In this document: piece after piece, positions 1-356 of the stretch | Layout: each line of letters starts with the position of its first letter | Numbering within the stretch: the stretch's first letter is position 1 | NCBI RefSeq assembly: GCF_003334385.1 | Contig: NZ_QOWN01000193.1 | Source: Escherichia coli | Lineage (GTDB): Bacteria > Pseudomonadota > Gammaproteobacteria > Enterobacterales > Enterobacteriaceae | Strand: one strand, 5' to 3' | Length of the DNA stretch: 356 nucleotides | Made by a program: the position numbers and the translations under genes | The notes under the pieces: generated by a model | Databases searched by the model: none | Told to the model about the DNA's origin: nothing | The model's input: only the letters and a program-made list of their open reading frames with translations

Positions 1-356
1 GGTGAAGGTGATGCATATATTCCGCCTCATACAGGTCTGCCAGCAAACAGTACCGATATTGCACCACCAGATATTCCTGCTGGCTTTGTGGCCGTTTTCA
101 ACAGTGATGAGTCATCGTGGCATCTCGTTGAAGATCATCGGGGTAAAACGGTTTATGACGTGGCTTCCGGCGACGCGTTATTTATTTTTGAACTCGGTCC
201 GTTACCGGAAAATGTTACCTGGTTATCCCCGGAAGGGGGGGTTCAGAAGTGGAGCGGCACAGCCTGGGTGAAGGATACGGAAGCAGAAAAACTGTTCCGG
301 ATCCGGGAGGCGGAAGAAACAAAAAACAGCCTGATGCAGGTAGCCAGTGAGCATAT
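1..356 (+). CDS. tfa: Phage tail fibre assembly protein (Tfa family), internal fragment, partial at both 5' and 3' ends; reading frame begins at position 1
   Basis: Frame 1 is open across the whole window: 118 sense codons with no TAA/TAG/TGA, last 2 nt incomplete. Translation: [118 protein letters not shown]. From memory this closely resembles the N-terminal and central part of E. coli prophage tail fibre assembly proteins (TfaE/TfaQ/TfaR-like, lambda Tfa family), including the motifs [37 protein letters not shown] and [18 protein letters not shown]. The specific paralogue cannot be assigned. No start or stop codon of the gene lies in the window; the in-frame ATG at 334-336 is an internal Met. 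The ORF track did not report this frame, presumably because it has no stop in the window. Confidence 0.85.

Follow-up and report, generated by a model that had tools for sequence, protein, structure and literature searches.

Does a run of seven G inside an Escherichia coli gene mark an unstable site, a sequencing error or an ordinary stretch of coding sequence? This question is raised by the window, the whole stretch of 356 nucleotides analysed here, in which the preliminary description had reported a C4-GGAA-G7 tract and had considered it prone to slipped-strand mispairing and to homopolymer errors. The tract could be read directly from the window on the plus strand, with C4 at 227-230, GGAA at 231-234 and G7 at 235-241, in the surrounding sequence TTATCCCCGGAAGGGGGGGTTCAG. 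Frame 1 is open over all 356 nt and the tract codes for S101-P-E-G-G-V106, so that both the coordinates (227-241) and the encoded residues had been given correctly. The window and the two runs are placed as follows.

1-356, plus strand: codons 26-143 of the 193 codons of tfa, placed by the match to strain SCU-104; the window lies wholly within the gene.
227-230, plus strand: C4 run, comprising the third base of Ser101 (TCC) and the first two bases of Pro102 (CCG), plus the preceding C.
235-241, plus strand: G7 run, comprising GGG (Gly104), GGG (Gly105) and the first base of GTT (Val106).

On composition alone the G7 run is unremarkable. When the window was shuffled 200 times with its dinucleotide composition preserved, 10 of the shuffles contained a G7 or C7 run (mean 0.09 per shuffle). 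The earlier statement that long G runs are uncommon in enterobacterial coding sequence was borne out by K-12 MG1655, for which six 50-kb samples (300 kb) were evaluated: two G/C runs of at least seven were observed, as against 31 expected from base composition. This corresponds to about one run per 150 kb, one of the two being located inside nrfE and the other in an intergenic region, and to an order of magnitude of tens per E. coli genome. In approximately 1.09 Mb of redundant prophage loci, 18 G/C runs of at least seven were counted. Real E. coli sequence avoids such runs.

The window was found to be identical (100%) to positions 1292824-1293179 of E. coli SCU-104 (NZ_CP053284.1), annotated as tail fiber assembly protein WP_152066050.1. 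The protein matched the Pfam family Caudo_TAP (PF02413) over residues 72-192, covering model positions 1-131 of 131 (E = 1.7e-42), and the PHROG 105 profile 'tail fiber assembly' (phrog_105) over residues 1-192 (E = 5.9e-98), while none of the NCBIfam models matched the Tfa protein. The annotation and the two profile matches agree with the original placement of the tract inside a Tfa coding sequence. The window shares 97-98% identity with K-12 tfaQ and tfaR and with many other E. coli tfa genes (97.2% for tfaQ), and 94.4% with lambda tfa (orf-194). The last value was also obtained for MW057783.1, the record of Campylobacter phage CJLB-4 (48,361 bp), with coordinates within about 80 bases of those of lambda; judged from identity and coordinates only, this record may be essentially lambda DNA. 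In the locus of the window (L001), stf ends and tfa starts at 5926, with stop and start codons overlapping in TAATG, and tfa directly follows stf in every related locus. By its family profile, its position after stf and its modular fold, the gene is a lambda-type tail fibre assembly gene. Its product probably serves as the folding chaperone of the side tail fibre (Stf).

The tfa gene of SCU-104 is located at the right end of a lambdoid prophage of about 42 kb, inserted at the argU / tRNA-Arg (DLP12) site. The prophage carries, in this order, intD, quuD, essD, rrrD, nohD, terminase, head and tail genes, and then J-lom-stf-tfa; rzpD is carried as well. It is a near full-length relative of K-12 DLP12. 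Downstream of tfa are genes for a Mn catalase, two DUF892 proteins, a KGG protein and a methyltransferase, followed by ompT and envY. Genes for iss and an ompC-like porin were also noted in this prophage, as were a small tail gene with an internal stop and a frameshifted TraR/DksA gene (L152, 39225-39554 and 9396-9613, respectively), and on account of these last two genes the prophage may be decaying or defective. A second tfa copy is present in SCU-104. Across the related loci L127-L135, the same tfa allele follows stf genes with called lengths of 990, 946 and 535 aa, and the stf sequences diverge strongly beyond about 1.5 kb upstream, where a mosaic or repeat-collapsed fibre gene is possible.

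The preliminary description had called for an alignment with Tfa homologues at the nucleotide level, in order to establish if the G7 run is conserved. This comparison revealed that other alleles have a run of four or five G at the site. K-12 tfaQ, tfaR and most alleles read GGGGAGTTT (Gly-Glu-Phe, G4), lambda tfa reads GGGGAATAT (Gly-Glu-Tyr, G4), and a P2-type Tfa with the residues DGGC reads GATGGGGGCTGT, with a G5 run only. The motif GGGGA was found at the site in all of 125 tfa copies from IMG/VR. Positions 188, 239 and 254 are C, A and A, respectively, in every one of 78 distinct full-length homologues. Both sets are silent on position 241, since the retrieval pattern held T there, but 239 was left free. 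Separate scans of IMG/VR for the G7 and the G6T3 alleles returned none. At the protein level, EGGV occurred only in the query among 134 proteins (cluster members and 90%-identity representatives), whose typical motif is P-x-G-E-[FY]-Q-K-W-[ND]-G. When a 71-mer around the tract was searched in 5,426 complete E. coli genomes, only SCU-104 carried it, the next best match being 95.8% with three mismatches. On these comparisons the G7 run is not conserved and is unique to one lineage. The C4 part is an ordinary and common synonymous variant (C228): of the 78 homologues, 36 have C at position 228, 41 have G and one has T, and strain 025542-1 also has CCCC.

Ten differences separate the window from tfaQ, four of them at 228, 239, 241 and 254. 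The sequence PGGEYQKWNG, given earlier as roughly that of the K-12 Tfa paralogues, turned out to be that of lambda Tfa; K-12 TfaQ and TfaR have PEGEFQKWNG. Four substitutions are specific to the lineage of the window.

188, plus strand: C to T, TCT to TTT, S88F; S88 is nearly invariant in a 46-sequence alignment.
239, plus strand: A to G, GAG to GGG, E105G; it extends the run from G4 to G6, and G is found in both the G6T3 and the G7T2 alleles.
241, plus strand: T to G, TTT to GTT, F106V; it lies where the G run meets the T run and extends the former from G6 to G7.
254, plus strand: A to G, AAC to AGC, N110S; in the family this residue is N or D.

The origin of the run was approached by querying ten hypothetical intermediates by exact protein, namely reversions of S88F, E105G, F106V and N110S, singly and combined. 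One of them exists: the form with Phe106 restored, PEGGFQKWSG (P0135; HAI8587996.1 and others), was read on 13 contigs, and the sources with this G6T3 form include the runs SRR29490170, SRR19345892 and SRR24884218. The exact-protein look-up of the other nine found them absent from the record, so the order of the remaining substitutions cannot be reconstructed. The P0135 gene (582 nt) differs from the SCU-104 gene at one site, gene position 316 (window position 241), in 7 of 7 loci, and reads GGGGGGTTT where the window reads GGGGGGGTT. Because the outgroups have T at 241, the path runs from GGGGAGTTT through A239G to GGGGGGTTT and through T241G to GGGGGGGTT. As this sequence comparison shows, an A-to-G change turned Gly-Glu-Phe into Gly-Gly-Phe, a form still extant in the same prophage lineage, and a T-to-G change at the run boundary then gave Gly-Gly-Val, the state of the window. 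All four lineage-specific substitutions are nonsynonymous and none is synonymous, which would be consistent with relaxed constraint or with adaptation to an altered Stf. It could mean adaptation rather than drift, a point that counts against an incidental origin of the run.

Neither actual instability nor a homopolymer sequencing error, the possibilities raised at the outset, was evidenced by the sequences available. The entire 356-nt window was identical in 9 of 9 loci read, corresponding to SCU-104 (GCF_013315995.1), four further isolate assemblies from NCBI (GCA_014465035.1, GCA_011318095.1, GCA_013970265.1 and GCA_017160035.1) and metagenomes from JGI (one) and ENA (three), and the complete tfa genes were likewise identical. 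The exact 193-aa protein was read on 24 contigs from NCBI, JGI and ENA sources. No G6 or G8 version was present in the 5,426 complete genomes. Such forms would score 98.6% and the best non-self match was 95.8%, from which the absence of G6, G8 and G6T3 in these genomes follows. The products of one-G loss and one-G gain, as well as that of an insertion giving G7T3, were absent among about 15 billion proteins; the 114-aa product of one-G loss would also result from the loss of one base from the G6T3 allele. These look-ups return in-frame copies only, and frameshifted copies could be missed, as PGAP pseudogenes yield no protein. The count of G-tract length in related isolates that had been proposed earlier thus gave G7 in 9 of 9 loci, the sole variant being a substitution (G6T3). 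The lineage is shallow, with tfa genes and 1.9 kb of downstream sequence identical among its members, and therefore 'stable' spans little evolutionary time.

Frameshift variants are detectable in principle, since the protein collection contains other Tfa alleles (for example P0128, P0080 and P0085) that are frame-scrambled over residues 98-135 or so, starting from the same G-rich region and returning to frame near the A run. The scrambling could be due to compensated indels or to long-read homopolymer errors. Two scans of metagenome contigs, one allowing G5-G9 and the other anchored downstream, came back empty and missed even the G7 allele of the JGI sample, which makes them uninformative. A second homopolymer is found in the window, A6 at 321-326, where lambda tfa has A8. 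At the site of this A run one IMG/VR copy (L103, around 11360) has A5, a one-base deletion that would frameshift tfa.

The position of the run in the protein was evaluated with an AlphaFold2 model based on the 46-sequence alignment (mean pLDDT 77, about 80-84 for the block at S101-G105). In the model, S101-G105 form a turn between strands 97-100 and 106-109, and an N-terminal beta domain (10-116) precedes two helices (118-152 and 158-175). Residues 127-192 match the solved structure of Mu Tfa (TfaMu 5YVQ; E = 1.1e-9). Tfa proteins consist of an N-terminal fibre-binding domain and a conserved C-terminal helical trimerisation domain (PMC9608196). The tract had been said to lie where this sequence appears to differ most from its K-12 paralogues. 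Differences from K-12 and lambda do cluster locally around it, but in the family as a whole residues 101-111 are only moderately variable (mean column entropy 0.56), and higher variability was found for residues 59-66, 158-165 and 186-193. G104 is invariant, in contrast to 103, 106 and 110, which belong to the more variable residues. The codons of the G run are thus predicted to specify a beta-hairpin turn whose neighbours vary across the family.

It had also been proposed that the gain or loss of a single G would truncate the C-terminal region of Tfa, and the predicted products agree with this. In the shifted frames a stop is reached after 9 and 36 codons; the loss of one G would leave 114 aa and the gain of one G would leave 141 aa, compared with 193 aa for the intact protein. 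The whole C-terminal helical domain would be lost in both products.

Published mutation-accumulation lines give an indication of how mutable such a run may be. In lines defective in mismatch repair, covering about 250,000 generations in total, the runs of seven G.C pairs in serW and serX acquired 5 and 2 indels, respectively, and the runs of eight in four tRNA-Leu genes acquired about 25 each; the indel rate climbs exponentially with run length (PMC8510543). From the literature, the rate for a G7 run without mismatch repair can be estimated at roughly 1e-5 per run per generation. With mismatch repair, the rate for such a run should be orders of magnitude lower, well below that of true contingency loci.

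Downstream of the run, an RNA structure was predicted at about 262-311 (z = -2.5), with one of 200 shuffles folding as well. It coincides with the first stem region, or 5' part, of the IS009 model. The Rfam family RF02111 (IS009) matches the window at 269-356; the full match spans 6269-6467 of L001 and reaches 227 bits, the gathering score being 117. It begins 28 nt after the G7 run and does not include it. What the family matches is in fact the conserved 3' half of tfa itself, read on its coding strand. In a study of EHEC, IS009 was listed among the RNAs inside genes. A separate candidate, a hairpin formed by C4-GGAA-G4 with a GNRA-type loop, was rejected, being no more stable than shuffled sequence (z = -0.5).

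Two alternative explanations concern position 241 itself. It may be supposed that the true sequence is G6T3 or some other form, and that the seventh G of this multi-copy gene is due to a T-to-G miscall, to faulty polishing or to a homopolymer error. T-to-G miscalls following G runs are a known type of Illumina error, the two alleles differ solely at the base right after the G run, and SCU-104 does have two tfa copies. Allele and flanking haplotypes are, moreover, incongruent in two assemblies, L128 and L147. An artefact is nevertheless very unlikely. The identical G7 was present in a complete genome, in four other NCBI isolates and in JGI and ENA metagenomes, with the protein on 24 contigs, and 13 contigs carried the G6T3 form. 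The ENA assemblies ERZ27242145 and ERZ27281439, whose accessions lie close together and whose contigs share the k141_ naming, differ in allele, and a strand-specific miscall should not repeatedly win the consensus. The incongruence bears also on the other explanation, according to which 241 would be a recurrent-mutation hotspot where transient misalignment toggles between G6T3 and G7T2 (Phe and Val); this is compatible with an origin by two substitutions and adds hypermutability to it. Run-extending base substitutions are a classic outcome of transient misalignment. In the loci L127-L151, compared over offsets -700 to +315 relative to the start of tfa, the G6 and G7 states do not fully follow the upstream stf haplotypes, and the states at 241 and at stf offset -594 are found in all four combinations. 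L128 has G7, with G6-type (B-type) stf upstream of about -700 and G7-type (C-type) sequence thereafter, and judging from this pattern it looks like a simple recombinant. L147 has G6, yet both of its flanks match the G7 loci L130-L135, a background otherwise found only with G7; the match includes the end of its contig, about 2.58 kb from the tfa start, where L130-L135 diverge from the remaining loci. To account for L147, a single event has to be assumed: a conversion patch, a recurrent T/G change at the boundary of the run, or an assembly error. With L128 explained as a recombinant, L147 alone is left for the hotspot, and this locus could also be due to a short patch of conversion or to faulty assembly. 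Tail-fibre genes recombine often, and a hotspot at 241 is regarded as unlikely.

It was also considered that the run acts as a contingency locus or a programmed frameshift site, at which slippage in DNA, RNA or translation would switch Tfa and the side fibres on and off. A coding G7 is rare and more slippage-prone than the average sequence, a one-base shift would truncate Tfa before its conserved domain, and an RNA structure is predicted downstream. The properties of contingency loci, length variation among close strains and a tract kept across homologues, were not observed here: no length variant was found in the 5,426 complete genomes, the nine loci or the look-ups of frameshift products, and the tract is missing from all other homologues and is only two substitutions old. 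Seven G are also shorter than typical contingency tracts. The features of programmed frameshifting are likewise absent from the site. The phase is GAA GGG GGG GTT, which is not an X-XXY-YYZ heptamer, and the run begins at a codon boundary after A. The predicted structure starts about 21 nt past the run instead of 5-9 nt, and K-12 tfaQ and lambda tfa, both without the run, have nearly the same sequence there. The alternative frames end after 9 and 36 codons rather than in a conserved extended product, and such products are not on record. A switch of this kind is highly improbable. An equally slim chance is given to a nascent contingency tract that grows by substitution (G4 to G6 to G7), with 241 as a site of recurrent mutation, and that already causes heritable, reversible loss and regain of side tail fibres in a natural E. 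coli lineage.

The G7 run is very probably an incidental homopolymer in a rare, lineage-specific tfa allele, arisen as the by-product of two amino-acid substitutions. The allele is an ordinary one, already catalogued as WP_152066050.1. The run itself would have no function and would raise the local frameshift risk moderately. A frameshift in it would delete the conserved C-terminal helical domain and abolish side-fibre assembly, a loss that would be tolerated because lambdoid phages are viable without side fibres. The run thus makes a dispensable prophage gene slightly fragile at this point. The conspicuous homopolymer is a genuine, reproducibly assembled allele that matters little, and since the allele is genuine its annotation as an intact tfa can stand. 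Both run-building steps are legible from living alleles, which makes this locus a small, clean case of a homopolymer built by substitution in a tolerant loop.

The sister allele P0135, from the same prophage lineage, is identical to the gene at 581 of 582 positions and shares its context, with Mn catalase, DUF892, KGG, methyltransferase and ompT genes downstream. P0135 has T at 241, G6T3 and Phe106, whereas the gene of the window has G at 241, G7T2 and Val106. Lambda Tfa (orf-194), TfaQ and TfaR belong to the same family and length class and occupy the same position after stf; they have G4, and the window gene differs from them by its G7 as well as by S88F and N110S. In laboratory lambda the frameshift is located in stf, where the split reading frames orf-401 and orf-314 are visible in the lambda record. 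This split is a fixed stf frameshift and shows that a lambdoid phage tolerates the loss of its side-fibre module. In contrast to lambda, the lineage of the window has an intact tfa with no frameshift seen.

The poly-G/C contingency loci of Haemophilus, Neisseria and Campylobacter resemble the tfa run in that a coding run is involved and a one-base change truncates the product. Tracts of these organisms are usually longer, conserved at their locus and variable in length both between and within strains. The tfa run, in contrast, has seven bases, is confined to one lineage and shows no length variation. The native runs of seven and eight G.C pairs in tRNA genes (serW/serX and leuPQVT) are of similar length and are indel hot spots in lines defective in mismatch repair (PMC8510543). 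In contrast to the tfa run, which is recent and has no such role, the tRNA-gene runs form the T-psi-C stem and are conserved for that reason.
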